From IMG/VR virus record IMGVR_UViG_3300032213_001988, positions 1 to 64,000 of that record: DNA of 64,000 nt, one strand, 5' to 3'. The position numbers were made by a program, and so were the translations under genes. The notes beneath the pieces are model-generated. The model was given only the letters and a program-made list of their open reading frames with translations. It was not told the origin of the DNA and searched no databases. Shown piece after piece: positions 6,953 to 50,132 of the stretch. Source of the DNA: a virus. Numbering within the stretch: the first letter of the stretch is position 1; every line of letters starts with the position of its first letter.

Positions 6953-6961
6953 ACGTGTTTT

Positions 6962-9595: not shown

Positions 9596-9596
9596 A

Positions 9597-9806: not shown

Positions 9807-10005
9807 GCTCTCCCTTTCAATACTGACAAAAACCCTAGTACATAACGCTTTTATAGGCATTGCTTAATGCAGAAGCAGTTTTGTATAATATGCGGAATTT
9901 GTGATAAATCAACTATAACGGGTATCTACCACTCATGTAAACAAACATACATACCAATTTTATGATTACAATTATTCTTACCCACTGCCGCAAAGGATCC
10001 TTTTA

Positions 10006-30240: not shown

Positions 30241-32950
<2,710 letters not shown>

Positions 32951-32954
<4 letters not shown>

Positions 32955-35243: not shown

Positions 35244-35771
35244 CTATAGGTTGTTAAACGTGCCTAAGTATAGGTTGCCGTTAACGTCAGGCCATAGGTA
35301 CTGATAATGAGGAGGGCGATAGCCAGGGTCTTCTTCCCAGCCAAACTGGCTATACCAGCTGTAATCTTTGCGTAAAAGTGACACACGGTGCGTGGACGCA
35401 ACCTGTTCAAACTTATCTCTGTCTGCCATCCAGCCAGGAAAGACTAGCTCTGGAGAGATTAACTTGCGCTCAACTGCAATATCAAATGTGCCGTAGATCT
35501 TGCCAAGCATTGTAGACTTGTAGCCGCGCTTACGCCACTCGAAGTACGTCGCTGCAAGATAAGAGACTAGCACGGCTTCGTGTCCGCGCCACATGTGCGC
35601 AACAGGATGATTAACCCAACCTTTAGGGTCACGAAACTCGCCCGCAGGATTAAGCTTAGTTAAGGCTAGTAAACACTGCCAGCCTTCTAAGGTTTGCTTG
35701 TGAAGGCGCTTGTTATCAAGCTCAGCAGCAATGCGCTCGAACGAATCGGTCTGTTGCATAAACGTTTGCAT
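35244..35771 (-). CDS. Pyrimidine-dimer DNA glycosylase family (DenV/MSMEG_6728-like)
   Basis: MQTF...LDNKRLHKQTLE...HPVAHMWRG...HRVSLLRKD..WY.QFGW...Y.WP. Confidence 0.8.
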   Translation of the reverse strand: MQTFMQQTDSFERIAAELDNKRLHKQTLEGWQCLLALTKLNPAGEFRDPKGWVNHPVAHMWRGHEAVLVSYLAATYFEWRKRGYKSTMLGKIYGTFDIAVERKLISPELVFPGWMADRDKFEQVASTHRVSLLRKDYSWYSQFGWEEDPGYRPPHYQYLWPDVNGNLYLGTFNNL

Positions 35772-35809: not shown

Positions 35810-36086
35810 AGGTGCCCTTGCTATATGGGTCAGTATTGAGATCGTCTAGGTTAAGAGGATCAACGTCATACTGAACCTCATCTGCCTCCATGTTTGCGTA
35901 TATTCCTACTATAGTAATATCTCCACATGAGGCACAGACGTTAATCTCGCCTGTCTTTAGCTCATCTGGAACTGTCACCGCAGTTAGCTTAGATATTAAA
36001 CTTCCATCGTCTCCAACAGATTCTGGCTCCCACTGTGTGTTCTCTTCAAGATAACACTTCTCGCACTGCGGATAGGCTTTTGTCAT
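35808..36086 (-). CDS. Hypothetical Zn-binding protein
   Basis: CEKC...CASC. Confidence 0.6.
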   Translation of the reverse strand: MTKAYPQCEKCYLEENTQWEPESVGDDGSLISKLTAVTVPDELKTGEINVCASCGDITIVGIYANMEADEVQYDVDPLNLDDLNTDPYSKGT

Positions 36087-37318
36087 TCGTAGCGCTTCTT
36101 TGCTGCGTGCCTTGAGAAGCCCTTATCAGTGTCTATAAGCCATTCACGATCTCCGATTAGTTCACCCTGGGGTCCGTTAGGTTCCCCACTCAGAGAGGCA
36201 ACTACGGCATCTCCTAGCCACTTAGCAGCGTGCACTGGAACTGCCTTTCCCCACGTAGCTTGCATCGCAGAGTAGTCCTTAGCACCTTCAATGTCCCAAT
36301 CGTCTGGCAGACCTTGCATGCGTGCACACTCGCGGTGAGTAAGAAGTCGCGGTTCAGTTGGGTGAACAACATGATCTAACGCAGAGCCAGTAAGCACGTT
36401 ACACCAGTGATCTTCCTTCCAGCGATACGGCTGAGAAAACCCAAGTTTATACTGCTTGCGTACAACACGCGCAGATATGTCGACCCAACGTTGAGGAAAC
36501 TTGCCATCATTCATTTCAACGGCCTTCTTTATGGCTCCGCCAAGATCTCCGTTCCCTGGCCACCCGTCATTTCCAATGATGTCAAACACCTCTTGAATTC
36601 TCTGTGAGTGAATCGTGTCCTTGCCAATGTGCCCGTTTACCTTGCCGTTTTTTGAGCGCAAGGACTTAGTAAACTTAGAGTGTTTTTCAATGTAAGGCTG
36701 CGCCTCCCACTGTTGTGGAAGATGCGCAAGATCACCTATGATGTCCATGATCTTAGGGAATTCCTTAGGCTCTGTCACCTGCGCACCAAACTTTAATCCT
36801 TTGCGTACCGCAACCCAGAAGTAACGTGGTCGATACGAGAATCCACCAAGTTGAAGATTGTTTTGTTTTACGTGATATAAGTCGTATTTCTTACCAGAGA
36901 TCTCTTCTACCATAAGACGATACTTGTTCATCGTCTCTCTCCCTTGTGTATAGGCTTGCTGCACGCACTCAAACACAATAATCTTTGGCGCAACTCGCCC
37001 TGCGTATCTCATAAAGGCGCGCGTATGCTCGTGCGCTGCAGAATCAGGACCACGATTTGCAGGACCAGACCAGACTGACCAACCAGAGCATGGAGGACAG
37101 CCAACGACAGCATCAACCTTGTGAACTGGCCACTCGTTTGCGTCATCTGAGAAAAATGTGCTCCACTTATTGCCTAGATGATGACGATTAGCTTCTGCAA
37201 CTGCGTTGCCAAAGTTAAGTGTGCCCGTGCGATTTGTCATTTCCATTCCAGCCTGCACAAGGCCTAAGCTCATGAAACCTGCAAGCCCGTTGCAGTCAGT
37301 AAATGTTGGTGTAGTCAT
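36083..37318 (-). CDS. C5-cytosine DNA methyltransferase homologue with degenerate SAM-binding motif
   Basis: Motif IV GCPPCSGWS, motif VI FECV, motif VIII YRPRYF, motif IX RLLTHRECARMQGLPDDW, motif X WGKAVP; motif I reads DCNGLAGF. Confidence 0.8.
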   Translation of the reverse strand: MTTPTFTDCNGLAGFMSLGLVQAGMEMTNRTGTLNFGNAVAEANRHHLGNKWSTFFSDDANEWPVHKVDAVVGCPPCSGWSVWSGPANRGPDSAAHEHTRAFMRYAGRVAPKIIVFECVQQAYTQGRETMNKYRLMVEEISGKKYDLYHVKQNNLQLGGFSYRPRYFWVAVRKGLKFGAQVTEPKEFPKIMDIIGDLAHLPQQWEAQPYIEKHSKFTKSLRSKNGKVNGHIGKDTIHSQRIQEVFDIIGNDGWPGNGDLGGAIKKAVEMNDGKFPQRWVDISARVVRKQYKLGFSQPYRWKEDHWCNVLTGSALDHVVHPTEPRLLTHRECARMQGLPDDWDIEGAKDYSAMQATWGKAVPVHAAKWLGDAVVASLSGEPNGPQGELIGDREWLIDTDKGFSRHAAKKRYE

Positions 37319-37368
37319 AAAGTATCTCCCGTAGTAGCCACGGAAGGACTGTATACTGGCTTTTAAGC

Positions 37369-37692
37369 TTAAGGCTGCTCTAGGGGAGCAGTTTTATTGC
37401 TTTTTTCAGCCTCAAGTTGTCCTACCTCGTATCCACACCCAGCGTAGCCTGCAATATCAATCCAAGTATCAGGCTGAAAACCAGACTTTGACCCATAGCG
37501 AGCAAGTTTAAGCCCTACCATCATCATTGCAACGTCTTCGCGTGTAAAGTTGTAGTTAGTGATAACACTCCACACCTTTGCGATACGTTCAAAGTTCTCT
37601 TCTGGTCCTCCGTATTGAACGTCACGCTCGCCGGCAATAATTCTTGCCGCCTCGCGTAACGCCTCAACACGTGGTTTATTTTCCTGGCTCAT
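37369..37692 (-). CDS. DUF6378-like helical protein
   Basis: LREAARII.GER...YG.PEENFERIA.VW...DVAMMM..LKLAR...DTWIDIAGYA. Confidence 0.7.
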   Translation of the reverse strand: MSQENKPRVEALREAARIIAGERDVQYGGPEENFERIAKVWSVITNYNFTREDVAMMMVGLKLARYGSKSGFQPDTWIDIAGYAGCGYEVGQLEAEKSNKTAPLEQP

Positions 37693-37694
37693 CG

Positions 37695-37904
37695 CTAAAC
37701 TCTCACCTTGACTTTACAGTCTGCTGAAAACGTTAAGTCCATTGGTCCTTCTTCTCCACAGAAAATAAACATTTCTATGTCAATTTTTTCTTTTATAGAA
37801 TCGTAATCTTCTACTTTAAAATAAGAACATATTCTTTCTATAAGCTTTCCTTCAATTTGTTCTTTTGTTTTTCCAATAATCTGAAAAGTTATGGTTGCTC
37901 TCAT
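37695..37904 (-). CDS. Hypothetical protein, locally AT-rich
   Basis: 69-aa ORF coupled to its neighbours. Confidence 0.55.
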   Translation of the reverse strand: MRATITFQIIGKTKEQIEGKLIERICSYFKVEDYDSIKEKIDIEMFIFCGEEGPMDLTFSADCKVKVRV

Positions 37905-38323
37905 TATTTGATCCTTCTTTCTAACTTGTATGGTGAATAGTGAACTCCGTCAAGAAAAGGCTTCTTGTCGTCGTTTGAGCGAATAATAATATCTCCGCTT
38001 CTTATTGCAACTACTATACCTCTCCGTCCGTTGTGCATTGCGCCCGTTGAGTCGCTGAAGGCGTCGTTCATTACGCGCACCTCTTCACCGACTGTTAAGA
38101 AACCCGCCTGAGCAGGTACCCAAACCTCGTCCTTTGGTGGATCAACAAGCGAGTGGTTAAGCGCAAGTTTGCTAAATACCTCAACGGCAGACTTTGCATG
38201 CTCTGGTTTTAGCTCAAGCGCCTTCCATGTGTCTAGTAGCTCAAGAACAGCCTTGCCAACAACAACACGAACTTTTGCTGAGACAAACTGTTCTCTTGCC
38301 CATTCCTCATTTATATCTGGCAT
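37904..38323 (-). CDS. Hypothetical protein with SH3/KOW-like C-terminus
   Basis: LTVGEEVRV...HNGRRGIVVAIRSGDIIIR. Confidence 0.6.
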   Translation of the reverse strand: MPDINEEWAREQFVSAKVRVVVGKAVLELLDTWKALELKPEHAKSAVEVFSKLALNHSLVDPPKDEVWVPAQAGFLTVGEEVRVMNDAFSDSTGAMHNGRRGIVVAIRSGDIIIRSNDDKKPFLDGVHYSPYKLERRIK

Positions 38324-38324
38324 T

Positions 38325-38795
38325 TTACCCCTCCACTACTGGTCTGCACTTTGCGCAGACGTCTGGCGTCTTGCCAACGCCAACATCGTCAATTGCCCTT
38401 GAGCACATCGCGCACTTGACGCCGATGTCCTTTACCTTATATCCATTTAACTGACGCTGCTTATTCTTTTCCATCTTTTCAAGATAGAACTTGTTAAGCT
38501 GCTCGTCTGTTCCTCCCGCCGCAACGATGATGTTTGCAACAAAGTGTAGAACGTCAACAGCTTCCTTAACAATCTCTTCGCGGTCTGCGTAAGGCTTATC
38601 GTGCTGCCAAGGCTTCCACGAAATTGCCTGCCGCATCTCTGCAAGCTCATCGTCGATGGCTAACATGTTCCAGCGCATGTACTCAACAAGACGGCGGATA
38701 TTCGCGTCCTTGTCGCCTTCCATCTCTTCGTAGTTAATGTAGTAGACGTCCTTCTGCAGGTCGCGTGTCTTCTTTAGCCAGCTATCAAACAGCAT
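38325..38795 (-). CDS. Dimeric all-alpha dCTPase/dUTPase (T4 gp56-like) with C-terminal Zn ribbon
   Basis: DELAEM...WKPW...KEAVDVLHFVAN...FYLEKMEKNKQRQLNGY matches the gp56 pattern WKPW...E..D..HF..N...Y..K...N..RQ..GY; then CAMC...CAKC. Confidence 0.8.
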   Translation of the reverse strand: MLFDSWLKKTRDLQKDVYYINYEEMEGDKDANIRRLVEYMRWNMLAIDDELAEMRQAISWKPWQHDKPYADREEIVKEAVDVLHFVANIIVAAGGTDEQLNKFYLEKMEKNKQRQLNGYKVKDIGVKCAMCSRAIDDVGVGKTPDVCAKCRPVVEG

Positions 38796-39804
38796 ATACT
38801 GCTCCTTTTATGTTAAGTGTTCTTTCTAAGTTGTGCAGTGCTTCTTCCTTGCCCGGTGAGTTAGCTAAGTAGGCGCTACTCTGAGTTCTTGACAGATCGT
38901 ATCTTTCCTGTGGTGTCATATCCTCAATCGTTGCTGCAAGGTACCTCCAAGAATTGCCAATTGCAGACGTGCTTGTCCAAAGTGACGCGATTGGCGTTGC
39001 AGTGTTCATTGCTTGGATATAACGATACGTCCACCAGGTTCTATCCTTGTGCGGGGATATAAGTGCACCAATAGACTGCCTGATCTGTTCTTCAACCTGT
39101 GAGTCAGTCCAGCCCTTGTTCCACTTCATTGGCATGGCCGGATAGTTTAAGGTTGAAAGCTTTTTCTTTGTCCACGGTGAATCATGACTATCTGCTACCC
39201 ATCGCGCAGTTCTATCTGTTACACCCTGCGTGTTTTTCTCGACGATATACGCATCAAGGTTTACTCCGTGCAGTGATGCAGCAGCTCCTTCAGGCAGTTG
39301 GTCACTGGCGCTTTGTTTTGTGTCCCAAGGAAGAACAGGGCACAATGTAGTTGGCCATGTTTCATTTAGTAGAAACTCAACAACGGCAAGCATCTCATTT
39401 GATCTTGCAACCGCAAGACGGTATCCCTTGCGGTTCTTGTAGAACTCCTTTGTAAGGTTTCCGTTCCAGGTGCTGATTGATGTCAAACTCGATCTAATCT
39501 GCACAGGATTAGGCGCGTCAATAAAAAACCTAAGCTTATCTGTACCCTTAAGCAGATCAATAAGGTGTAGTGCTCCATACGCGTAGTTTGCGCTTAAACT
39601 TGTTAACGGAGAGATGCCAACAAGAACTGAGTCGTAGTAGTCCAGGTGTTGAGCTTCCCACGTAATATCTGGCTCAAGCATCACGACTTGATGCCCTGCG
39701 TCAGTAAGAACCTTGTCAACAAGACCTGCAAAAGATAGCGAGCGCTTGTTTGCACTGGTTGATACCTGTGGCGCAGACATACCTGTAATAAGAACGCGAC
39801 TCAT
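38785..39804 (-). CDS. GT-B fold glycosyltransferase, putative DNA transferase 2
   Basis: RVLITG...LTDAGHQV...YDSVLVG...RFFID; C-terminal WWTYRYIQAMNTATPI. Confidence 0.6.
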   Translation of the reverse strand: MSRVLITGMSAPQVSTSANKRSLSFAGLVDKVLTDAGHQVVMLEPDITWEAQHLDYYDSVLVGISPLTSLSANYAYGALHLIDLLKGTDKLRFFIDAPNPVQIRSSLTSISTWNGNLTKEFYKNRKGYRLAVARSNEMLAVVEFLLNETWPTTLCPVLPWDTKQSASDQLPEGAAASLHGVNLDAYIVEKNTQGVTDRTARWVADSHDSPWTKKKLSTLNYPAMPMKWNKGWTDSQVEEQIRQSIGALISPHKDRTWWTYRYIQAMNTATPIASLWTSTSAIGNSWRYLAATIEDMTPQERYDLSRTQSSAYLANSPGKEEALHNLERTLNIKGAVYAV

Positions 39805-41006
39805 GCATCGGTACCGTCTGCGTTTAACTTAACGCCCTTGTCCTCGCGTAGTGCGCGCGCAATGATGCGTTCACAGTGATCCTTAAACTGGTCATACGTT
39901 CCGATGTAAGGGCGTAACGCGTCAGCCTGTGCCTTTGCTGCTGCAACTAGCTCTGTATCTGACATCTTTTCAACGTCTGCGATGGTTAACTTATAGGCAT
40001 CACCTAACGGATCACCTTCGCCTTTATCGGTAACGAGAATAGATCCAATGTGCGCTGCGTAGAGGAAGCGCGAACGCCACCAACCTGAACCTGCGTGTGG
40101 ATACGGTGGAGAAAGAATTCCCCAACGAGTGTTGTAATACTCAAGTACTTCCTGCTCTGTATCAAGACGCTTTCCACCAAGCTTACGAATAAGTTTACGA
40201 CTACCAATAATTTCAACAGCCCAGTCTGGTTTCTTACGACCTAGCCATTCATCGTGTGGCATTAGTGCGCCAAGCACCCACGCACGATTCTTTTCTGTCG
40301 ATGGAGTTACAGCTGCGAGCGTATCGTTAACCACTACACTAGGGTCCAGTGCCTCAATGGGACCGACTTCTTTTGGCATACGTTTACGAACACCGGTGCG
40401 GTCACCCCACGCATACATCGGACAAACTGGAACCATACCAGCTTCCCAGCGGCGGTCAATCATGTCTGTTGCTGCCTGCACAAGACGTTTTTCGTAAGGC
40501 TGAACGTTTTCGTCTGTGTCCATCATGTAGTAACGTTCAATGTAGCATTTCTTCGCCGCAACTGGATCTAATACACGAACACGTTCTAACGCTGCCTCGA
40601 TATCTGCGCGACTAAAGTAGGTTGCGCCTTCTTCACCGCGATGCTCTGTTCCAACAAGCAGATGCTTATAGAGCATTGAAGGCTTTTTCATCATAGCGCG
40701 AGCGCCATTGAACACAGTATTAAACTGCCAATCATCAAAAAATCCAACCGCAGGCAAGCCTGAGGATAAAGTATAGAGAGCGCCCATAGCGCCTTGTCGT
40801 CCATTTAGCGAGTTCAACGGAGCAAGGTTAACCCAAGCAACATCGTATGAGGACAAATCCTCGCCAGGCGTTACCTTACGCCAGTCAACTTCATGACCTA
40901 AATCTGTTAATGCCTTTACAATTAACGCAGGCACATCAATCTTTTGTATTGTGCGTCGTTCTGTGTTAATCTGTAACGCAGTAAAACCAGTCATCAAGAT
41001 TTTCAT
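39801..41006 (-). CDS. GT-B fold glycosyltransferase resembling T4 beta-glucosyltransferase, putative DNA transferase 1
   Basis: MKILMTG...LTDLGHEVD...DLSSYDVAWVN.APLN...GFFDDWQF parallels the BGT N-domain (DVNDYD.LIVVNSSIN...YLFTDIRL); C-terminal WWRSRFLYAAHIGSILV. Confidence 0.65.
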   Translation of the reverse strand: MKILMTGFTALQINTERRTIQKIDVPALIVKALTDLGHEVDWRKVTPGEDLSSYDVAWVNLAPLNSLNGRQGAMGALYTLSSGLPAVGFFDDWQFNTVFNGARAMMKKPSMLYKHLLVGTEHRGEEGATYFSRADIEAALERVRVLDPVAAKKCYIERYYMMDTDENVQPYEKRLVQAATDMIDRRWEAGMVPVCPMYAWGDRTGVRKRMPKEVGPIEALDPSVVVNDTLAAVTPSTEKNRAWVLGALMPHDEWLGRKKPDWAVEIIGSRKLIRKLGGKRLDTEQEVLEYYNTRWGILSPPYPHAGSGWWRSRFLYAAHIGSILVTDKGEGDPLGDAYKLTIADVEKMSDTELVAAAKAQADALRPYIGTYDQFKDHCERIIARALREDKGVKLNADGTDA

Positions 41007-41029
41007 ACTACTCCTTAAATAATTGCTGG

Positions 41030-41061
41030 ATCATTACCCATGCTTGTGCATGGGTAATGAT
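41030..41061 (-). terminator. Perfect 14-bp stem-loop between the SSB-like and glycosyltransferase genes
   Basis: atcattacccatgc-ttgt-gcatgggtaatgat; only a weak U-tract follows. Confidence 0.55.
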
Positions 41062-41076
41062 ACCAGACAATCGTTG

Positions 41077-41631
41077 TTAGAACGGTGCAGCAGGTGGTGC
41101 AGCAGGCGCTGGAACTGATGCAGCAGCGGCAGGCGCTGGTGCAGGAGCAGGCGCAGCGGCAGGCGCTGGTGCAGGGGCAGGTGCAGGCGCAGCTGCCACT
41201 ACAGGTGCAGCAGCTGATGCTGTTGCAGTGTAGTACATCTTGATTTCGTTCTTCTTAGAGCCGTTCCACGTGCGAGAACCAATCTGCGCGCGGAAGGCAC
41301 GATTTTGCAGTGCTGCCTCAATAGCAGCGTTGCTTGGTGAAGTTGCGAAGTACTCACGGCCAAGGCCTAGAGCTGCCATCTTACGGAAGAACATTCCGAG
41401 TGCTGCAGGACTGTCTGGTGTAACAACAAGGTTATCCCAAACACGACGCTTAGCGTGCGCGCCACCTGTAACTTGCGCTGTTATCGCAAACATTGTCTTA
41501 CCAGATTGTGCAACCTTTGCAGTTGCTTCAATTACGATTAAATCGTAGTCTCCATCGGGAAGCGGCTCAAAATTACCACCACCGACATCTCCAGCGTCCT
41601 TTACAAGGTCGCCCCAGTTGAGTGAACTCAC
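41077..41631 (-). CDS. DUF669-like single-stranded DNA-binding protein with Ala/Pro-rich tail
   Basis: FEPLPDGDY.L.V.EA...SGK.M...G..RRVWDNL...KNEIK; (AP)n tail ending in PF. Confidence 0.75.
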   Translation of the reverse strand: MSSLNWGDLVKDAGDVGGGNFEPLPDGDYDLIVIEATAKVAQSGKTMFAITAQVTGGAHAKRRVWDNLVVTPDSPAALGMFFRKMAALGLGREYFATSPSNAAIEAALQNRAFRAQIGSRTWNGSKKNEIKMYYTATASAAAPVVAAAPAPAPAPAPAAAPAPAPAPAAAASVPAPAAPPAAPF

Positions 41632-41665
41632 GGTTATCCTTTCAATAGTGCGCTAACCAATTTGG

Positions 41666-42436
41666 TTAGGACGCGGCTTTCTTTGCTTTGGCTTCTGTCT
41701 TTTCGCCAAAAATCATGTCTAACATGCGCTCAATGCCAAGGTCTTGTTGTTCAACAATTTTACCAAGGCGTCCTTGAACACGCTCACCAGCTTCAAACTC
41801 GTCTGTTCGTTCGACGTACATACGACGAACTTTATACGGAGCTTGCAGTGGATCTGGGTTAGGAAAAGTCTCGACGTTGATTGCGCCAAGAATGTCGTAA
41901 AAGTATGGTGCCTGAATAGCAAGTTGACCCTGTAGGTACGGACGCATACGCCCGTCCTGGCCTGGTCGTGCCATAGCAGTAAGCACAACAGCTTCTAACG
42001 GTTGAGTTGGGTGCATTGTAAGGTCACGTAGGTCACGCAAAAGTGCGCCCATGTGACGAAGCAACTCGCCCCACTGTTGCATCTTCATCTGCTCTGTACC
42101 TGCAATTGAATCCATGCACTTCACTTGAAGCTCAGAGATAGAATCAATGATAAGAGATTTGAACTGATGCTTTCCAGTTTGTAACCACTGGAATGTTTTG
42201 ATAACAACGTCGTAGTCACGAACATTTACTACGACAGTGTCCCATGTGCCATCTGCGACTGGTGGTTCTTCGCGCAGAGGGTCCCAGTACCTTACGGTGA
42301 TAGGTAGGAATCGGTGCCCACCTTCAACGTCGAGCATGAGACGAGGATAGGGTGCAGTTACGGCAAAAGTTGACTTACCAACCTTTGACTCGCCATACAC
42401 CATGATAGTCAGCGAACGCTGTACTTCATTTGACAT
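41666..42436 (-). CDS. AAA/RecA-like ATPase (Sak4-like annealase)
   Basis: YGESKVGKST Walker A; LIIDSISE Walker B. Confidence 0.8.
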   Translation of the reverse strand: MSNEVQRSLTIMVYGESKVGKSTFAVTAPYPRLMLDVEGGHRFLPITVRYWDPLREEPPVADGTWDTVVVNVRDYDVVIKTFQWLQTGKHQFKSLIIDSISELQVKCMDSIAGTEQMKMQQWGELLRHMGALLRDLRDLTMHPTQPLEAVVLTAMARPGQDGRMRPYLQGQLAIQAPYFYDILGAINVETFPNPDPLQAPYKVRRMYVERTDEFEAGERVQGRLGKIVEQQDLGIERMLDMIFGEKTEAKAKKAAS

Positions 42437-42439
42437 ACG

Positions 42440-43375
42440 TCACTCACTTCCTTTCTTCTCTTCGATGTGGTAATACCCGTATGGATCGGATGATTCATAC
42501 GCCTCGCTAAGTGCTTGTTCGGCGGCGCTTCCGTCGTCAAACATTGGGCATATAGCGAAAAATTGACATTTCCATTTGCAATCACGACTTGGTCGTGGAT
42601 ACGCAACAAGCTGATGAGATGATCCATCGTCTAAGGCTTGACGCACGTTGAGCATATCAGATAGTGTTCCATGAATACGTTGCCAGAAGTTACGTAACGC
42701 AAAAACATTGTGTCGAACTTCCATCTGCTCATAAAAAGGTGGTCGTGCATTTGCAGAGCGTTTTACCTTCTTAAGCATTGTAAAGATTCCGCCTTCAGAA
42801 CGTTCGCCTTCTTTGTTCTGTGCAGTCTCAAGCATCATATATGTAAGGATCTGCTCATTCATGTGCGCCATCGCCGCAAAGTCTGTGAATGACCCTCCAA
42901 CAGTCTTAAAGTCACGGAACATACGCACGCCGTCAGCCTTACGACGAACACGCATATCAATCTTGCCTTGAAGAATAACCTTGCCATCAAACAACGGCAT
43001 CTCGATAATTTCTTCTGTAGAGATCATCTCTAGCTCAGCATCAATTCCATTTTCTTCAATCCACTCAAGATATCCTTCGAGCATGATGCGCCCAAGCTCA
43101 GCCTCAGCGTCAAGATCATACGTATCTCTAATCTGCGCTTCTAGGTCTGCCTTATCCTTTGCAATAAGAGCAGAGTGCGCCTCAAGAAGAGGTATTCCTT
43201 TTGAGTAGTAGTCATCAAGCGCCTGGTGAATGCGAGAACCAAGCGCTAACGCACCAGTCTTTGACTCTGTGCGTGGACGTAAACGACGGTAGTAGCTTAG
43301 CCACCACTTACGTCGACAATCCTTAAATGTTTGGATCTCTGAGTTTGATATGCGTATTGGTTCTACTACGCTCAT
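42440..43375 (-). CDS. PD-(D/E)XK RecB/Cas4-like exonuclease
   Basis: SNSEIQTFKDCRRKW...LGSRIH...GKID...RDFKT...Q...Y; C-terminal CKWKCQF..IC. Confidence 0.85.
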   Translation of the reverse strand: MSVVEPIRISNSEIQTFKDCRRKWWLSYYRRLRPRTESKTGALALGSRIHQALDDYYSKGIPLLEAHSALIAKDKADLEAQIRDTYDLDAEAELGRIMLEGYLEWIEENGIDAELEMISTEEIIEMPLFDGKVILQGKIDMRVRRKADGVRMFRDFKTVGGSFTDFAAMAHMNEQILTYMMLETAQNKEGERSEGGIFTMLKKVKRSANARPPFYEQMEVRHNVFALRNFWQRIHGTLSDMLNVRQALDDGSSHQLVAYPRPSRDCKWKCQFFAICPMFDDGSAAEQALSEAYESSDPYGYYHIEEKKGSE

Positions 43376-45177
43376 AGCTTTCCTGCCTTGTCGTCTTTAA
43401 GTAGTGATAACAATTGTGCCTTATCGCGAACGATTTGCTCAAAGTTATCAGCCTTGGTTTCAAGGACTTGAATTACGCGTTCCTCAATAGTTCCTTCAGT
43501 AACATAGTCACTAATGATAATTGAGTCATGAATCTCAGAACCAATGCGGTGCACACGGTCAAGAGCTTGCTTGTGATCAACAAGTGACCAAGGGCGCTGC
43601 AGCATGATTAAACGACGTGCTGCAGTTAGCGTGATTCCAACACCACCAGCCTGCGCTGTAAAAAGTATCCACTTGATCTTGCCAGCCTGAAAATCATCAA
43701 CCGCTTGTTGACGTTCATCCTCAGACTGAGCACCAGTGATGAGACCATGTGGAATTTTTTCCTTAGTCATTTCTGCACTAAGTAAATCTATAAGTTGGCG
43801 TGATACCGCGCATACTGCAACTGAGTCATCGCCAAAGTCGCCGTTCTTAATATCATCCATAACTGCATCAACCTTGCATGATGGGCCAATAAGTGTTACC
43901 TTGCTCTCACCGGTTGTCTCATCAACGCTCATTTCAGCGAAAGAACTTGCAAACTGCAGCAACCTTATTGTTTGTGTTAAAGGGCTAGGTGCTGTAACTG
44001 ACTCACCGTCCTCGAGTTCAGCAATCATAAGATCACGCATCTGGTCATAAGCTTTCTTTTGCTTAGTGGACATTTCTACGTCCTTGCGTTCAAACATCAT
44101 TTCTGGAAGCCAAGGAAGAACCTTTTGCTTAAGCATACGACGCATACGCGGATTTATCGCCGCGTAGAACTCTTGTTCCATGTGAGGCTTTACACCTAGA
44201 ACCATCATTCCGCCAAAGGCATTCATCATTGTGTTAATCATGCGGTCAATCCAACGCGTCTTACTTGGCCATTCATCTGGTGATAACCAGTGCAATATAG
44301 ACCACATATCTAATACGTTATTGGCGATAGGTGTTCCTGTAAGAGCAAACCGAATATCAGCGTCACCTGTTGCCGCCCAAAGAGCACGAGTTTGTTTTGA
44401 CTTAGGCTCCTTAGATCTGTGGATCTCATCAGCAACGACTGCCTTAAAGTCAATTGTGTTTAATTCACGCAGGTGAACCTCGCAGCGATTCTCTGAAACT
44501 CTATCATCGTGGCCACCGCACTCTGGGCACTTTGCAAGTGCAATTGAACCGTAGCCAGAAAGACGAGAATGCGAGCGCAGAGATTCCCAGTTAATGACGT
44601 ATACGTCAGCCTCTTCCTCAAAAATCTTGCGACGTTGAGTTGCAGAACCTTTAATAACTTCTACATCAACTCCAGGCCACCAGCGTTCAAACTCACGCTT
44701 CCAGTTTTTCTTCAATGTATTAGGGCAAACGATTAACGCAGGAAATACGTCTTCACCGCGATCTTGTAGTTCTTTAAGTGCACGGATCGCCTGTGCTGTC
44801 TTGCCAAGGCCAGGTTCATCTGCAAGCAGCGCACGTCGGGCTACTGCTAGAAACTTTACGCCAGCTCGCTGGTGCGGGAATAGATCCTCGTTAGAGCCGT
44901 CCTCAATTACTTCTAGTTCACGTAGTTCGTTTGCTGGCGTAATTCTACTTGAAACCTCCTGCCCTGCCCATACGGCTAACCTTGGGCCGATTACGAGATC
45001 ATCGCGAAACGTTGAGCGCAAAGCTAGGCAGGTTGCCCAGGATGTAGGAACGCGCCATTGCTGCTCTTTAGGGTCCCACTTAGAACCAGGGATACTTTTG
45101 CAAAGCTCCTTAAAGCGCCACTCTGTATGGATAACTACATTCTTACCCAGTTCATCGAGCTCTACGTTTACTGGCAC
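43372..45177 (-). CDS. SNF2-family DNA helicase
   Basis: LLADEPGLGKT, VADEIH, LTGTPI, GVGITLTAA, QALDRVHRIG. Confidence 0.92.
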   Translation of the reverse strand: MPVNVELDELGKNVVIHTEWRFKELCKSIPGSKWDPKEQQWRVPTSWATCLALRSTFRDDLVIGPRLAVWAGQEVSSRITPANELRELEVIEDGSNEDLFPHQRAGVKFLAVARRALLADEPGLGKTAQAIRALKELQDRGEDVFPALIVCPNTLKKNWKREFERWWPGVDVEVIKGSATQRRKIFEEEADVYVINWESLRSHSRLSGYGSIALAKCPECGGHDDRVSENRCEVHLRELNTIDFKAVVADEIHRSKEPKSKQTRALWAATGDADIRFALTGTPIANNVLDMWSILHWLSPDEWPSKTRWIDRMINTMMNAFGGMMVLGVKPHMEQEFYAAINPRMRRMLKQKVLPWLPEMMFERKDVEMSTKQKKAYDQMRDLMIAELEDGESVTAPSPLTQTIRLLQFASSFAEMSVDETTGESKVTLIGPSCKVDAVMDDIKNGDFGDDSVAVCAVSRQLIDLLSAEMTKEKIPHGLITGAQSEDERQQAVDDFQAGKIKWILFTAQAGGVGITLTAARRLIMLQRPWSLVDHKQALDRVHRIGSEIHDSIIISDYVTEGTIEERVIQVLETKADNFEQIVRDKAQLLSLLKDDKAGKL

Positions 45178-45206
45178 CTATTGGTCCTCTCGTCGTTACG
45201 TAATAC

Positions 45207-45215
45207 ATACTATCA
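45207..45215 (-). promoter_or_regulatory. Extended -10 promoter TGATAGTAT
   Basis: Upstream of the helicase, with TTTACA 16 bp upstream of the hexamer. Confidence 0.5.
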
Positions 45216-45276
45216 GGATTTGCACTTTTGTAAATACTATTTATGCTTAGTATCTATGGAAATAATATATCACGTA

Positions 45277-45732
45277 TTACTGCAATAAACGCACTGGCTT
45301 CCAGCCTGTTTTTACAAGTTTAAGTAGACCGTGCCTTATCGCGTCAAGTGCGTGACCTTCTCCACCTTTGTGCCAGTACTCAAGTTTCTTGAGCTTAGGA
45401 TTGTCAAACATTGCCTTTGCATCTGCCGGTGATTGAAAGTAGATGTCATCTGGCTTTCTACCTGCGTCCATAAGGCACTGCTTAAGGATGCCAATTTGCT
45501 CAAGCGAGTACGGCGCCTGTGAGTTGCGAACCGTCTGCGCGTTAATGGTAAATCGCTCACACACAACGTCTAAAGTGTCCCCGTAAGAGGCTAGAGTGTC
45601 CCGTATAGGCTTGGCGTATTCCTCCTGTTGGAATTCACCAGACCAGATTAAAACCGGCTCCTGGCCGCTCTCAAGGCTAAATAAAGCCATTCCAGTGGAT
45701 TTCCCTGGGTCTACTGCAAGAACGTATCTCAT
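45277..45732 (-). CDS. RuvC-like Holliday junction resolvase
   Basis: VLAVDPGKSTG...VVCERF...H..DAIRH. Confidence 0.7.
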   Translation of the reverse strand: MRYVLAVDPGKSTGMALFSLESGQEPVLIWSGEFQQEEYAKPIRDTLASYGDTLDVVCERFTINAQTVRNSQAPYSLEQIGILKQCLMDAGRKPDDIYFQSPADAKAMFDNPKLKKLEYWHKGGEGHALDAIRHGLLKLVKTGWKPVRLLQ

Positions 45733-47555
45733 TAGTATTTATCTCCCCAAGTCTCCATTGGACCGTCAATACCGGCGGTAAGTGGGACGTCCCAACCCTC
45801 AGTTGTAGTCATGCATTGTTTAACAACTTGCATAATCTCCTGGGCGTCCTCGCGTGGTGCGTTAAGAACAATTTCGTCGTGTACTGGCACGATAAGAAGC
45901 TCGGTTAGATCTGCCTGGTCAAGTTTAATAAGATTTGCCTTGAACACCTCGGCAGCTCCACCTTGAATGAGATAGTTAACAAGTGTGTACGCGCGATCTT
46001 CATCACAAGGTAGGCGTCGACCTGTCCAGGTGTAGACGTATCCTTGTCCCTCTGCCTTCAAGCGTCTCATTCCAGCATCTTCAATTTGACGTTGAAAGAG
46101 CGCCATGCCAGGGAAGCGTAGATCAAACGCGTCTGATGTTTGGCGCATCTGTGGCTCAGTAACTCCTGCTGTTAACGCCTGCTTAGCAACTCCTGCTCCG
46201 TAGAGACGTCCATACACAGTTCCCTTAATTAGGTTACGGCGCTTATCTGACCGTTGCATCGTTGGATCTCCGTAGATTTCACGACCAATTTCAGTGAAAG
46301 GATCTGACCCTGTTGCATCTGCACGGTTAAAGAGCGTGATGAGATTTGGGTCCTGTGAGAGGGAGGCAAACATTCTAAATTCAACCTGGTCAAGGTCTGA
46401 GGTAATGATGACATGATCCTTATCCTTTGGTATGAATGCGGTGCGAACAGTTGCGTCGCCTTTAGGCAACGTCTGTAGCGCAGGGTTTTGGATTGACATG
46501 CGGGAGGTACGAGCGCCAAGCGTCTTTACAGAGGGATGTACAAAACCGTTCACGTTGTCATTGATAAAGTTTGCAAAGTATGTGTTGGCAAGCTTATCTG
46601 CCTTGCGTTGTTTTAGCACCACATCAGCGAGATTCTTTACGTCAGCGTTGCCTGAGATTGCAAGAAATGCAAGTTGGTCCTTATCGGCAGATTTTTGACC
46701 AGATGCTGTAAATGTTGTGATCTCTGCACCAAGCGACTCGAACAAGCGAACAAGTTGAATGTTACTTGTGATTGATACTCCGTTATACGTTTTCTTTGCC
46801 CAGTCTTTTACGGACTCTGCATACGCAGTTAGTTCATCAAACTTCTTCCTTGAGTAGTCAAGATCAATACGTGCGCCGTTAATCTCCATGCGGGTGACAA
46901 TCTTGCGCGCAGCCATTTCCAATTCATATGCACGATGATAAGGCTGTCCTGGCCCGCACTTCTCCCAGAACTGTTCCCATATGCGCATTGTTAAAACTGT
47001 GTCAAGTGCACCGTAAGCCCAATAAGGCTGGAAGTTTGTAGGGACAGTTCCCCATGTCCAGCCGTTTGTTGCTAGTGATGTATCAAGAGTTTCCTGCATT
47101 GCAGCTGCGCGTCCATCAACGTAAAGTGACGCAAGACGTTTTAACGCACCTGAGCCAAGAGGATCAATAATGTGCGCCATAATCATCGTGTCGTGTGCGC
47201 GTTCCCACGGCATCTTCCAGGTTGAGTGAACATCAAACCAACGAGCTTCAAACGCAATGTTATGGCAGACTATTGGGCCATCAAACTTATCCATAGCCTC
47301 GTAAAAAACACCAGACCATTCCTTCCAAGGAATTGCCCAACCTGTTAATCCATCGCCTACCTGCACTAAACGTAGTTGCCCGTGCCAAGGAGATAGAGCG
47401 TCCTTACGCTCACCACCTGGATTCTCACCAGTTTCAGTGTCAATTGAAATTGCGTTGTGAGGGCGACGTTCACCTAGCCACGCAATAAACTCGCGCGCGG
47501 TATCAACGTTATCAACGAGATGTAGTTTTACGTCGCTTAGTCCTGTAGTTGTCAT
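45732..47555 (-). CDS. polA: Family A DNA polymerase (3'-5' exonuclease plus polymerase)
   Basis: Exo SIDTET, HN..FE, HDTM, YGALD; Pol motif A SDLDQVEFR, motif B R..IKG..YG..YG, motif C VHDE. Confidence 0.95.
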   Translation of the reverse strand: MTTTGLSDVKLHLVDNVDTAREFIAWLGERRPHNAISIDTETGENPGGERKDALSPWHGQLRLVQVGDGLTGWAIPWKEWSGVFYEAMDKFDGPIVCHNIAFEARWFDVHSTWKMPWERAHDTMIMAHIIDPLGSGALKRLASLYVDGRAAAMQETLDTSLATNGWTWGTVPTNFQPYWAYGALDTVLTMRIWEQFWEKCGPGQPYHRAYELEMAARKIVTRMEINGARIDLDYSRKKFDELTAYAESVKDWAKKTYNGVSITSNIQLVRLFESLGAEITTFTASGQKSADKDQLAFLAISGNADVKNLADVVLKQRKADKLANTYFANFINDNVNGFVHPSVKTLGARTSRMSIQNPALQTLPKGDATVRTAFIPKDKDHVIITSDLDQVEFRMFASLSQDPNLITLFNRADATGSDPFTEIGREIYGDPTMQRSDKRRNLIKGTVYGRLYGAGVAKQALTAGVTEPQMRQTSDAFDLRFPGMALFQRQIEDAGMRRLKAEGQGYVYTWTGRRLPCDEDRAYTLVNYLIQGGAAEVFKANLIKLDQADLTELLIVPVHDEIVLNAPREDAQEIMQVVKQCMTTTEGWDVPLTAGIDGPMETWGDKY

Positions 47556-48026
47556 TTAATCCTCTAGTATCGTTACATCAATACTGCAATTTTTAAGATA
47601 ATCAATTGTAGCTTCTGGCTTTCGGTGAATTGCCTTACTGCCAACACGCATAACAACTCTTGCAACTCCTGAGTTAGACACAAGCTTTGCGCATTGTAGG
47701 CATGCTACGTCTGTTATGTATATTGTTCCACCTTCAATACGTGATCTATCAACGTATAAAAGAGCATTTGCTTCTGCATGAATTGACGGACACGTGTCAT
47801 ACATGTTATCTAGTGGTACAAGACCTTGCGCACGCGGGCACCACTCAATGCAGTCGCCCTCAACGTCAAGAGTTGCAGCAGGCCCATTATACCCGGTAGA
47901 CGCAACGCGCTGGTTGGAAGAAACTACAACCGCGCCAATCTGTGCACGAGAACAACGTGAACGTTTAGCAATGGTGTCTGCTACGTCCATCCATACCTTG
48001 TCCCATGAAGGTCTATCTAAGCTCAA
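47556..48026 (-). CDS. dCMP deaminase
   Basis: CSRAQIGAV...TGYNG...HAEANAL...ACLQC (H.E...C..C zinc motif). Confidence 0.9.
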   Translation of the reverse strand: MSLDRPSWDKVWMDVADTIAKRSRCSRAQIGAVVVSSNQRVASTGYNGPAATLDVEGDCIEWCPRAQGLVPLDNMYDTCPSIHAEANALLYVDRSRIEGGTIYITDVACLQCAKLVSNSGVARVVMRVGSKAIHRKPEATIDYLKNCSIDVTILED

Positions 48027-48256
48027 AACGGAACATCTCCCTTATCATCGTCATCATCAATGTGACCGTACTCGTCCATTCCTTCGTGAACTCCTGCAGC
48101 AAGAATATGCGCAACAATAGTTACAGCCTGTCGACGTGTAAAACCAGCACGCGTAAGTTCGCGATACATCTCATGCATCTGTAGTGCAGCCTCGCGCAAA
48201 GGACTTATATTAAAGTCCTCCTCGTTAAGACCGCCTTCTTTCTTATTGTCCGTCAT
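48023..48256 (-). CDS. Hypothetical protein
   Basis: 77-aa ORF coupled to both neighbours. Confidence 0.65.
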   Translation of the reverse strand: MTDNKKEGGLNEEDFNISPLREAALQMHEMYRELTRAGFTRRQAVTIVAHILAAGVHEGMDEYGHIDDDDDKGDVPF

Positions 48257-49134
48257 TATTTACTTTTCTTGTCTGCTTGCTTTTCATCCTTCTGTAAGTT
48301 ATTTAGAACAGCGCGTTTCATCGAGTCAGTATACCACTTCTCAGCGTCGTTAAGACGCGCATACGTTGGCTCACTCACAGTTGCCTGCATTGCAAGCATG
48401 GCAGATGACTTAACCTCGTTCCAGGTGCGTCCAGTGATTGCAGGAATTGTCGGGCTATGCAGTGCGTGTGCAAGCTTATCTGCTGAGGCGTAGTGCTGCT
48501 CATAAATGTGAAGTGATCCTACGTGGTGATTGTATGTTCCAGGCTCGATACCTAAAACAGATGCCATAGCAATTTGCACGCGAGTAAACTGGAAGAAGTC
48601 ATACGCTGCACCTAGCCATACATCGTTTGAGCGCATATACACACTCATGTTAAGCTTGTTATTACGAATACGGAACTGATGCAGGATTGTGCAAGGGTAG
48701 TCACGCTTTCGTTCCTGTAGGTCAAGCTGCGGGTTCCAAATTGTAACTACTGCCTGTCGTGTATCAGGGTCTTGCATAAGTCTGTCAATAATCATGTCGT
48801 ATTGCCCTGCAGTTCGAGGACCGTATGCTCCGTGAAATAAACCGTTGTCCTCCGCGTAGTTTGCAAACTGCGGGCCAACGGAGATAACTAAGTCTGGAAT
48901 AGTTACACCTGCAAGAAGTTGACACGCCTCAACCGCACCGATGCCAGGAACTGTTCCTCGACCAACCTCAAGAGGTAAGGTGTTAAACACGTTGTCAATG
49001 CGAATAATCGCATCCTCGATCTCAAGGGTCTTCATACCACGTGGAGCAACCTCCTTGCCGTGCTCAAGTACATGCTTAACAAGATCAACGTATCCGTTGA
49101 CTCCGTCTTCTATATTTATTATCGCAGTATCCAT
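48256..49134 (-). CDS. Thymidylate-synthase-fold enzyme, dCMP hydroxymethylase-like
   Basis: DYPCT catalytic Cys; MRSNDVWLGAAYDF has Asp at the dUMP/dCMP specificity position; GSLHIY. Confidence 0.85.
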   Translation of the reverse strand: MDTAIINIEDGVNGYVDLVKHVLEHGKEVAPRGMKTLEIEDAIIRIDNVFNTLPLEVGRGTVPGIGAVEACQLLAGVTIPDLVISVGPQFANYAEDNGLFHGAYGPRTAGQYDMIIDRLMQDPDTRQAVVTIWNPQLDLQERKRDYPCTILHQFRIRNNKLNMSVYMRSNDVWLGAAYDFFQFTRVQIAMASVLGIEPGTYNHHVGSLHIYEQHYASADKLAHALHSPTIPAITGRTWNEVKSSAMLAMQATVSEPTYARLNDAEKWYTDSMKRAVLNNLQKDEKQADKKSK

Positions 49135-50132
49135 GCGTCATCCTTTTCTTGTAGTGTAGCAACTCGTAGAATTGCATCTCCGTATTCTTCCTTGCTTTTG
49201 TTAAAGAACCTACGCACATACTGCGGGTGAGGCAGAACAGAGTAGTAGTCCTCGTGTACGGGAATTGACGCCAACGTCTTCTCCGCAAGACGCCCAAGAA
49301 CAACTATTCTTGGGAAACCTAACGTTCTCCATAACTTTAAGAAGGAGTCCTTCACACCTTCATCGTTTATATTGACGATGCCCACGGCACGCCAAAGCTC
49401 CTCGGACATTGCAGTAAGTAGATACTCCGCAGAGTTACCATCAACAGGCATAAACGGAAGTTTTGTTTCCTCGCCGTATTTCTTTACGATGTTACGCGTA
49501 TCTCCAATAAGCAGCACCTTCGGGCTTGGGTTTCCAATATAGTATGGAAAAGGCTCGAGCTTGGCTGCCATTAACTCAACCTGCTCCGCGCTATCAACTA
49601 TATACTTTGCAACCTCAGGTATAAGATCAATGCTGTCTGCTGGAGGCTCAATCTTTGCAATGATGTTTGATGAGCCACAGGCAATTTCATATTGTTTAAG
49701 AATATCACTGAGGTCATCTACGTCTACAAAGTCGTCGCCGCGAGAGGCAAGACGCTGCTGAATAACATCAAGAGGCTGATATAGCCAAAATTGAGCAACG
49801 CCACGAGACATAAGGAAGAGTTCAACCCAACGCCAACCGGCCTTGCCTAATAGACCATATCCATCCTTGTTTGTACTTGGGCGAAACTTAGGAGCGTATG
49901 TTACTTCGCCCCAGTGCCAACGATCTGATAATCCAATTTTATTAAACCAATTTATTGGTTCAATTGACATGACGTAGTCGTTTAACACCCAACGGCGTGT
50001 TTGTTCTTCAGGACGCCCCTTGTGAAAAAGACGCGTTGGAGTAGTTGCAAAGCGCTCGTTAAGCTCGTGCTCAACTGCAGCGATAAGAGAGCTCTTACCC
50101 GATGCGTCGGTACCTTCGATTACTATAAACAT
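49119..50132 (-). CDS. dNMP (thymidylate-type) kinase fused to a uracil-DNA-glycosylase-like domain
   Basis: IEGTDASGKSS P-loop and DRWH; C-terminal VLLIGDTRN...FMP..GNSAEYL...IVVLGRLA...LPHPQY. Confidence 0.75.
   Translation of the reverse strand: MFIVIEGTDASGKSSLIAAVEHELNERFATTPTRLFHKGRPEEQTRRWVLNDYVMSIEPINWFNKIGLSDRWHWGEVTYAPKFRPSTNKDGYGLLGKAGWRWVELFLMSRGVAQFWLYQPLDVIQQRLASRGDDFVDVDDLSDILKQYEIACGSSNIIAKIEPPADSIDLIPEVAKYIVDSAEQVELMAAKLEPFPYYIGNPSPKVLLIGDTRNIVKKYGEETKLPFMPVDGNSAEYLLTAMSEELWRAVGIVNINDEGVKDSFLKLWRTLGFPRIVVLGRLAEKTLASIPVHEDYYSVLPHPQYVRRFFNKSKEEYGDAILRVATLQEKDDAWILR

Follow-up and report, generated by a model that had tools for sequence, protein, structure and literature searches.

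A Predicted T4-Type Pathway for Glycosylated 5-Hydroxymethylcytosine in a Freshwater Actinobacterial Siphovirus

Introduction

The synthesis of 5-hydroxymethylcytosine (5hmC) before replication, followed by its glycosylation, is the textbook anti-restriction strategy of the T-even phages, whose hosts are Gram-negative. In the literature that we searched, no report was found of this strategy in phages of Actinobacteria. Here we describe a set of genes in IMG/VR virus record IMGVR_UViG_3300032213_001988, a complete genome of 131,518 bp with direct terminal repeats; its first 64 kb (positions 1 to 64,000) are referred to below as the window. The virus is a freshwater actinobacterial siphovirus, and the genes in question form a tightly packed block on the minus strand at 36083–50132 of the window. 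Judging from sequence comparisons and structural models, we put the probability at roughly 70% that the virion DNA of this virus carries glycosylated 5hmC, made by a pathway of the T4 type in which 5hmC is produced before replication and the sugar is added afterward.

The virus follows the same logic as T4 and shares with it most of the enzyme families: a homologue of thymidylate synthase (TS) with an identical active-site signature, a gp56 homologue, a dCMP deaminase, and glycosyltransferases (GTs) of the GT-B fold resembling T4 beta-glucosyltransferase (BGT). The present virus differs from T4 in being an actinobacterial siphovirus with a family A DNA polymerase, in having a thymidylate-kinase/YorR-like kinase that carries an extra C-terminal domain, in encoding GTs that are paralogous to each other and 13% identical to BGT, and in retaining an enzyme resembling C5-methyltransferases (C5-MTases) within the conserved set.

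A second group of described systems, pathways for glycosylated 5-hydroxycytosine, is found in RB69, DLP3, and Rhizobium phage RL38J1 (Lee et al., NAR 2026; PMC13326640). These phages encode a dCTPase and likewise keep a TS homologue and a thymidylate-kinase/YorR-like "nucleotide kinase" close together in a cluster with at least one GT-B DNA glycosyltransferase. Their TS homologues carry D169N and support flavin-dependent hydroxylation of C5; in the virus described here D169 is kept, so the sugar would sit on a hydroxymethyl group and not directly on C5. RL38J1 also encodes a UDP-galactopyranose mutase, a gene that it has in common with DSL-LC01, a relative of our virus discussed below.

Metavirome surveys (Pyle et al., bioRxiv 10.1101/2023.12.21.572611; Burke et al., PMC8256090) have described clusters of a C5-methyltransferase, a 5mYOX (TET) dioxygenase, and a GT, in which 5hmC in DNA is the substrate of GT-B enzymes resembling BGT. 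Our virus differs from these clusters in that no match to TET/JBP (PF12851) was found in its complete 131.5-kb genome. A post-replicative methyltransferase-TET route was rejected on this ground, and, the genome being without TET/JBP, the MTase-like gene here would accompany a pre-replicative TS route in which methylation is not needed to obtain 5hmC. In the same survey approximately 28% of the contigs with BGT-like GT-B genes adjoin ThyS, and dCMP deaminase and methyltransferase genes often lie near such ThyS/GT-B pairs; because of this survey, the general pairing of ThyS with GT-B has to be regarded as already known. In other words, the kind of system is familiar from T4 and from the metavirome surveys. 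What is new is a conserved module in actinophages, cultured ones included, together with an ancient GT-B pair, a pathway-bound MTase-like subfamily, and a kinase fusion.

Results and Discussion

Predicted product of the thymidylate synthase homologue

The TS homologue was aligned with E. coli ThyA, T4 gp42, and RB69 gp48, taken from public records, and was read at diagnostic positions that have been validated by experiment (PMC13326640). According to that study, replacement of L143 by Asp or Glu admits water and gives a hydroxymethyl instead of a methyl product; N177D, which is common to the hydroxymethylase, methylase, and hydroxylase types, shifts the substrate from dUMP to dCMP; and the flavin-dependent 5-hydroxy-dCMP synthases carry D169N, an Asp at position 169 marking folate-type chemistry. 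In the alignment the viral protein has the residues of T4 gp42 (L143D, H147T, Q165M, D169 kept, N177D) as well as the MRSND motif in common with it, and the equivalents of the catalytic residues C146 and E58 are conserved. At position 143 the viral protein reads RDYPC against ALAPC in ThyA, and at position 177 AAYD against PFN; at position 169 its RSND, with Asp, stands opposite the RSQN of RB69 gp48 (D169N). The best match among PDB entries is the CMP hydroxymethylase MilA (E = 5e-23), and the protein remains under every NCBIfam equivalog cut-off for ThyA (87.4 against 174.55 bits and 71.9 against 108.35 bits).

Because L143D and N177D occur together with a retained D169, the predicted product is 5-hydroxymethyl-dCMP (5hm-dCMP) and not dTMP, 5-methyl-dCMP, or the 5-hydroxy-dCMP of RB69. 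The original prediction had proposed a TS fold with the Asp typical of dCMP enzymes (N177D); the alignment shows this residue to be real, and L143D and D169 also fit a hydroxymethylase. Canonical ThyA was ruled out by the changed Asn177 and Leu143 and by the sub-cut-off NCBIfam scores, and the 5-hydroxycytosine route of the RB69 gp48 and DLP3 gp80 type was rejected on account of the retained D169. We hold it very unlikely that the enzyme nonetheless makes 5-methyl-dCMP, as in Xp12, or 5-hydroxy-dCMP, as in RB69. The N177D change is compatible with either product, being common to all three enzyme types, but the residue at position 143 is Asp and not hydrophobic, that at position 169 is Asp and not Asn, and 5-methylcytosine would offer the GTs no hydroxyl.

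Enzymes of the nucleotide pool

The 156-amino-acid (aa) product of the gene beside the GT pair is a direct homologue of gp56. A BLASTP comparison with the T4 protein gives E = 3e-11 and 31% identity over 107 aa, the terminal RQxNGY included; the score with PF08761, a family of all-alpha NTP pyrophosphatases, is 48 bits against a cut-off of 22.9; and the PDB matches are dimeric dUTPases. The BLASTP result bears out the dCTPase named in the original prediction, and motifs, Pfam, and PHROG matches do the same for the deoxynucleoside monophosphate (dNMP) kinase, the dCMP deaminase, and the family A polymerase (PolA). The C-terminal 35 residues of the dCTPase hold a CxxC-x13-CxxC tail, missing from T4 gp56, that may be a zinc ribbon.

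Since neither ThyX nor a second TS gene was found in the complete 131.5-kb genome, the dCMP deaminase would most simply supply host thymidylate synthesis, by analogy with T4. A different outcome would follow if 5hm-dCMP were deaminated to 5hm-dUMP, with glycosylated 5-hydroxymethyluracil (5hmU) replacing some or all of the thymine, and to this we assign very little probability. The deaminase gene does lie two genes downstream of the TS homologue; a preprint describes some phage dCMP deaminases as preferring 5-substituted cytosines (bioRxiv 10.1101/2024.12.05.627091); and T4 alpha-glucosyltransferase (AGT) has, by the titles of the structures, been crystallized with HMU-containing DNA. Yet T4 has the same pair of genes, and there the deaminase Cd feeds dTMP synthesis; a gp56-like dCTPase fits the exclusion of dCTP; and no function excluding dTTP is present among the annotated genes, a statement made without a dedicated search and with many small open reading frames (ORFs) unannotated.

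For a pathway of the T4 type leading to 5hmC, the predicted role of the kinase is the conversion of 5hm-dCMP to 5hm-dCDP. Its kinase domain (residues 1 to ~155) is thymidylate-kinase/YorR-like, with the P-loop GTDASGKS and a DRW motif read from the sequence. It matches a PHROG of thymidylate kinases at E = 1.2e-12, and a profile of five homologues finds YorR (2axp) in the PDB at E = 2.7e-6. In the study of the hydroxylating phages (PMC13326640), the top Foldseek match of the DLP3 "nucleotide kinase" is YorR as well (3kb2, the same protein as 2axp), and the counterparts in RB69 and RL38J1 match thymidylate kinases; in RB69, DLP3, and RL38J1 the kinase is one gene away from the TS homologue, with a glycosyltransferase gene between them.

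Beyond the kinase domain the protein continues into a C-terminal domain of ~140 residues (~195–337; window 49122–49610), in which GDxRN, LPFMP, and PHPQYVRRF are invariant among five homologues from freshwater relatives. The original prediction called this part of the fusion UDG-like (UDG, uracil-DNA glycosylase), a label that could not be secured and that we consider unproven. The match to the Pfam UDG family (PF03167) covers profile positions 4–135 of 141 at E = 0.006 and 17.1 bits, under the 24.3-bit cut-off, and UDG is matched at E ≤ 1 in two of the five homologues. No match to the domain was obtained among PDB sequences (with the five-sequence profile), PHROGs, or NCBIfam. Look-alikes in the Atlas (score 0.88), among whose members UDG makes up 18–30%, provide a lead only. 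In the UDG superfamily, motif A is GQDPY, GEAPG, or GINPG and motif B is His-Pro-Ser; in the viral domain GDTRN would stand at the place of motif A and PHPQY at that of motif B. The kinase of Gordonia phage GodonK, by comparison, is without the C-terminal domain, and no stand-alone copy was found beside it.

The paired GT-B proteins

GT 1 and GT 2 match no Pfam family even at E ≤ 10. The profile of their family, compared with PDB sequences, finds no GT and only chance matches at the level of flavodoxins, and hhalign of both profiles against T4 BGT is not significant. Since the sequence-level searches were not significant, the homology of the pair to BGT is one of structure. AlphaFold2 models, built on alignments from a search of the whole library (627 clusters at E ≤ 1e-3) and from a homologue search, have predicted local distance difference test scores of 95.6 for GT 1 and 93.5 for GT 2, and both show the two-Rossmann GT-B fold. 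T4 BGT is the best Foldseek match of GT 1 (E = 2.5e-7) and the top solved match of both models, with a lead of more than 1 Z unit over the next family. In the VIA comparison BGT scores Z 19.1 with GT 1 (root-mean-square deviation 4.0 Å, 305 residues aligned) and Z 17.9 with GT 2 (3.6 Å, 295 residues); the runners-up are SenB (Z 17.3 for GT 1 and 16.7 for GT 2) and T4 AGT (Z 16.4 and 15.5). The models and the structure search thus agree with the two tandem GT-B transferases that had been proposed and with their similarity to DNA glycosyltransferases, BGT coming out on top for both and AGT also scoring high.

A weak hhalign match between GT 2 and BGT (E = 0.14) sets the invariant D96 (FFID) on the catalytic D100 (LFTD), and alignment of the paralogues places D92 of GT 1 against D96 of GT 2 in the FFID/FFDD strand. 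Compared with each other by BLASTP, the two proteins give E = 1e-8 and 20% identity, which marks them as distant, ancient paralogues.

Gene context bears on the acceptor. Members of the GT family occur near TS genes of the hydroxymethylase (hm) type in DSL-LC01, in the group of phages around GodonK, in a Manatee Spring siphovirus, and on two unrelated metagenome contigs (L022 and L023), and the T4-like Aeromonas phage 50AhydR13PP has a match to the family and a gp42-type TS; by alignment, every TS homologue in this set has the hm-type signature. Cyanophage C48C1, which has no TS homologue, carries a TET/JBP dioxygenase gene immediately upstream of two tandem GT-family ORFs. Altogether, in at least seven lineages the family has an hm-type TS gene or a TET/JBP gene as its neighbor, and it appears to track enzymes that create hydroxymethyl-pyrimidines whatever the route, as DNA 5hm-pyrimidine glycosyltransferases would. 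With the support of this context, GT 1 and GT 2 are predicted to be DNA 5hmC glycosyltransferases.

It is conceivable that the virus makes 5hmC DNA and uses the GT-B pair on some other target, be it a small molecule, a polymer of the host wall, or proteins of the virion, in which case the final base would be plain 5hmC or 5hmC modified in another way. Very many kinds of enzyme have the GT-B fold, and some that act on small molecules, SenB for example, come within 1.2–1.8 Z of BGT; for part of the GT family no TS gene lies closer than 10 kb; and the collagen-like fibers of the phage might be glycosylated. On the other hand, the GT-B genes sit among the genes for replication and nucleotide metabolism, where they overlap that for the dCTPase, the family recurs beside hm-type TS or TET/JBP genes in the lineages counted above, and a separate GT2-TPR gene next to the collagen-like fiber genes is a better candidate for virion glycosylation. 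We therefore regard a non-DNA target as quite unlikely and retain 5hmC in DNA as the favored acceptor.

Several loci seen along the way deserve a record of their own. In our virus the GT2 glycosyltransferase with a TPR repeat (33231–34307, plus strand) adjoins the collagen-repeat fiber genes (30241–32954, plus strand). In C48C1 (L027), positions 7586–11033 hold a 472-aa Tet_JBP ORF (65 bits) followed by ORFs of 344 and 336 aa that the GT match spans, all annotated as hypothetical; the cassette looks like one for post-replicative glycosylation of hydroxymethyl-pyrimidines in a Kyanoviridae phage. In phage 50AhydR13PP (L028), three tandem hypothetical genes of ~350 aa follow motA at 4895–8164, the middle one matching the N-terminal third of GT 1, and these may form a triple array of DNA glycosyltransferases. 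On the JGI contigs L016 and L017 the GT gene (9553–10569 and 10001–11017, respectively) belongs to a PolA/SNF2/PD-(D/E)XK/AAA_24 module and adjoins a DUF932 gene. Three single distant representatives of the GT family, searched in IMG/VR, gave no related loci.

The C5-methyltransferase-like protein

A C5-MTase homologue is present, as had been claimed, and scores 81.6 bits with PF00145 against a cut-off of 22, but the match begins only at profile position 56. The match to NCBIfam dcm (48.9 bits, cut-off 100.65) begins at model position 58, and the Pfam and NCBIfam matches both leave out the cofactor-binding motifs I to III, of which motif I is canonically FxGxGG and motif II contains an acidic residue. 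The catalytic residues are invariant: PPC in motif IV, E117 in motif VI, and R163 and R165 in the Arg-x-Arg of motif VIII. With these residues kept, the protein should still be able to attack a cytosine-type base at C6. In its sequence the family motifs PCQ, ENV, and GN[SA]V are replaced by PPCS, E[CS]VQ, and GKxVP, and the changes are conserved in five lineages; GKxVP corresponds to motif X, and a Gly-rich NG[LF][AG]G loop is kept. Loss of motif I was considered and dropped, given the conserved Gly-rich loop and an ambiguous N-terminal alignment with E. coli Dcm, on which two MAFFT runs disagree. For the same two reasons, loss of S-adenosylmethionine (SAM) binding cannot be claimed.

By tblastn the subfamily occurs in 15 of 50,697 phage records, namely, DSL-LC01, Micrococcus phage Kurnik, and 13 Gordonia records of the GodonK group, the last representing eight phages of which five are present twice, as GenBank and RefSeq copies. 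Those representatives of the carriers that were inspected have GT genes and a MazG-like gene along with a dCMP deaminase and a TS of the hm type. Contig L023, as a fourth lineage, holds TS, GT, PolA, and dUTPase_2 genes in one gene run with an MTase-like gene of 31% identity. Compared with DSL-LC01, the MTase-like protein is 69% identical, against 30–34% for the GTs. All this makes it look like a component of the pathway instead of a stray orphan methylase. The original prediction had described an "odd" methyltransferase absent from T4; that it is divergent and stands outside the T4 scheme is upheld, and the description is refined to that of a pathway-linked subfamily.

Most likely, and this is the conservative reading, the MTase-like protein acts on cytosines of the phage DNA that escape replacement. 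We think it unlikely, though we give the idea some weight, that it is a dedicated hypermodification enzyme and not a conventional methylase, one that would convert leftover cytosine to 5hmC after replication with a non-SAM cofactor or would activate 5hmC or glycosyl-5hmC for further substitution. Three observations prompt the suggestion: (i) among the phage records searched, only phages that have a TS of the hm type carry the subfamily; (ii) it is more conserved than the GTs in the comparison with DSL-LC01; and (iii) normally invariant positions carry conserved changes (PCQ to PCS, ENV to E[CS]V, GN to GK), and the family models fail to align with the cofactor region at the N terminus. If the suggestion were true, the product would be a cytosine derivative not yet described.

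The same module in other actinophages

Actinomycetia phage DSL-LC01 (L001) is the sole phage record with similarity at the DNA level. The gene order is the same, with the difference that a UDP-galactopyranose mutase gene (13031–14128 of DSL-LC01) lies between its two GTs. The authors of DSL-LC01 read the mutase as an auxiliary gene for the host wall; by analogy with RL38J1, we consider it more likely that it supplies galactofuranose for DNA. Searches with each GT paralogue, and likewise with the TS, kinase, and MTase-like sequences, find the Gordonia phages GodonK, Phendrix, Sixama, Forza, Boopy, BlueNGold, Mareelih, and GMA2. GodonK, whose annotation was inspected, differs from our virus in two further GT genes and also has a MazG-like gene and a deaminase. 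Micrococcus phage Kurnik encodes a TS, a deaminase, PolA, MazG-like and MTase-like proteins, and two GTs that differ from those described here in their length of ~250 aa and were not detected by tblastn with the 401-aa GT-B query. An AAA ATPase of Kurnik was tried as a counterpart of the kinase and is not a homologue.

Common to DSL-LC01, GodonK, and Kurnik is the order TS, deaminase, PolA, RuvC, helicase, nuclease, RecA-like, GTs, MazG-like, MTase-like; the kinase precedes the TS in DSL-LC01 and GodonK, and the TS signature is of the hm type in DSL-LC01, the GodonK group, and Kurnik. No report of modified DNA in any of these phages was found in the literature searched, and the module has so far been unrecognized in them. 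Public annotations name the genes thymidylate synthase, thymidylate kinase, and methyltransferase, as would fit a collection of ordinary nucleotide-metabolism and orphan-methylase genes that are neighbors by chance, in a virus whose DNA is unmodified or bears only site-specific C5 methylation. However, the TS homologue is without Asn177 and remains below the ThyA equivalog cut-offs, and phages of Gordonia, of Micrococcus, and from fresh water all keep the gene set together; chance neighborhood is accordingly an account that we find highly improbable.

Proposed pathway and sugar donors

In the T4-type pathway that we favor, the gp56-like pyrophosphatase would cleave dCTP (and dUTP) to the monophosphate and so clear dCTP from the pool. 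The TS-fold enzyme, with the gp42-like active-site signature seen in the alignment, would use methylene-tetrahydrofolate to turn dCMP into 5hm-dCMP; the thymidylate-kinase-like kinase would form the diphosphate; the host nucleoside diphosphate kinase would form 5hm-dCTP; and the family A polymerase of the phage would put this nucleotide into DNA. The dCMP deaminase would provide the dUMP from which the host makes thymidylate. Once the DNA has been replicated, the BGT-like pair GT 1 and GT 2, whose fold is modeled and whose substrate we infer, would move sugars from host nucleotide sugars onto the hydroxyl of 5hmC. Because ancient paralogues have been kept side by side in distant relatives, the two probably do different jobs, making two linkages or adding a first and a second sugar. 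The MTase-like enzyme, inherited with the pathway, would act on cytosines that replacement has missed. The resulting DNA would be expected to withstand restriction enzymes and probably some CRISPR nucleases as well. The interpretation offered originally, pre-replicative modification of cytosine followed by glycosylation as in T4, is supported by the TS signature, the gp56 homology, and the BGT-like folds of the GTs; the sugar, the completeness of replacement, and the anti-restriction role are points that we infer.

Nothing in the complete genome matches the Pfam families UGM, NTP_transferase, and Epimerase, the only three sugar-nucleotide families searched and not the whole range of sugar genes. 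Within those families, the earlier statement that no sugar-nucleotide synthesis genes are visible holds across the complete genome, which sets this virus apart from RL38J1, and a phage-encoded route to the donor was rejected for this genome. Because these families are absent, the donors are probably host UDP-sugars, as in T4.

Several points weigh against the pathway as drawn. The GTs share only 13% identity with BGT, and the alignment of their profiles with BGT is not significant; the match in fold, seen in models, would speak for ancestry and shape and not for the acceptor. On contigs L016, L017, and L024, which carry members of the GT family, a TS gene is missing from the surrounding 10 kb. 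Nor does the kinase appear to be of the T4 gp1 type. Finally, a C5-methyltransferase would have no obvious substrate if cytosine were fully replaced; replacement may be partial, or the enzyme may have another role.

Should the pathway operate as proposed, the T-even strategy would reach abundant freshwater actinophages as well as cultured phages of Gordonia and Micrococcus; related metagenome proteins number in the hundreds, on contigs of 110–136 kb. DNA modified in this way resists many of the enzymes on which library preparation and cloning depend, and it may bias surveys of metagenomes. New DNA glycosyltransferases would be available in the pair of GT paralogues, and the MTase-like subfamily and the kinase fusion would represent steps that the T4 model leaves unexplained.

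Gene layout, host, and neighboring genes

All of the genes listed in the original prediction were located in the one minus-strand block, by ORF calling and Pfam and, for the GT-B pair, by structure. Table 1 gives them in order of transcription, from the kinase and the TS homologue through PolA, five recombination and replication genes, and the two GTs to the dCTPase, three small ORFs, and the C5-MTase-like gene. Most neighboring genes overlap or adjoin each other. Because start and stop codons do so at the kinase/TS, TS/77-aa ORF, 77-aa ORF/deaminase, deaminase/PolA, GT/GT, and GT/dCTPase junctions, the block looks co-transcribed and translationally coupled. The recombination and replication genes (41077–45732) interrupt the pathway gene set.

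Table 1. Genes of the minus-strand block, with window positions and the basis of each assignment
Feature	Position	Strand	Basis
P-loop kinase with C-terminal domain, 337 aa	49119-50132	-	motifs GTDASGKS, DRW; PHROG
TS-fold predicted dCMP hydroxymethylase, 292 aa	48256-49134	-	PF00303 E=3.7e-27
77-aa ORF between TS homologue and deaminase	48023-48256	-	no Pfam or PHROG match
dCMP deaminase (Cd-like)	47556-48026	-	PF00383 E=3.6e-18
Family A DNA polymerase with 3'-5' exonuclease	45732-47555	-	PF00476 E=2.8e-54, PF01612
RuvC-like	45277-45732	-	Pfam, PHROGs, syntenic DSL-LC01 annotation
SNF2 helicase	43372-45177	-	Pfam, PHROGs, syntenic DSL-LC01 annotation
PD-(D/E)XK nuclease	42440-43375	-	Pfam, PHROGs, syntenic DSL-LC01 annotation
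AAA_24 RecA-like	41666-42436	-	Pfam, PHROGs, syntenic DSL-LC01 annotation
DUF669 SSB-like	41077-41631	-	Pfam, PHROGs, syntenic DSL-LC01 annotation
GT-B glycosyltransferase 1 (GT 1), 401 aa, BGT-like	39801-41006	-	AlphaFold2 model and structure search; no Pfam match
GT-B glycosyltransferase 2 (GT 2), 339 aa	38785-39804	-	AlphaFold2 model and structure search; no Pfam match
gp56-like dCTPase/dUTPase, 156 aa	38325-38795	-	PF08761 (dUTPase_2) E=2.2e-12
Three small ORFs: 139 aa, 69 aa, 107-aa DUF6378 protein	37369-38323	-	Pfam DUF6378 E=3e-26
C5-cytosine MTase-like, 411 aa	36083-37318	-	PF00145 E=9e-23

The assignment of the virus to the actinobacterial siphoviruses, made from the first, stands because of a WhiB regulator (34249–34788), an SPP1-type Dit tail protein (54685–55632), and relatives that are actinophages.

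Three hypothetical genes of DSL-LC01 occupy the position that matches the three small ORFs. The DUF6378 protein among these ORFs (37369–37692, minus strand) is encoded between the dCTPase and the MTase-like gene, and the "phosphofructokinase" label that PHROGs attach to DUF6378 families looks like a carried-over misannotation. The MTase-like gene is followed, at a distance of some 300 bp that includes a 92-aa ORF, by a gene for a pyrimidine-dimer DNA glycosylase resembling T4 DenV (PF03013, E = 9e-14; 35244–35771, minus strand), and DSL-LC01 has the same gene in the same place. Outside the window, the genome encodes a B12-dependent class II ribonucleotide reductase (genome positions 122221–124260, minus strand), an AAA_5 ATPase paired with a VWA-like protein (100012–102888, minus strand), and a class I SAM methyltransferase (125846–126634, plus strand). 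Very long ORFs of 1549, 1946, and 2541 aa lie at 12520–17169 and 24391–30231 of the window, both on the plus strand, and at 72171–79796 of the genome, on the minus strand.

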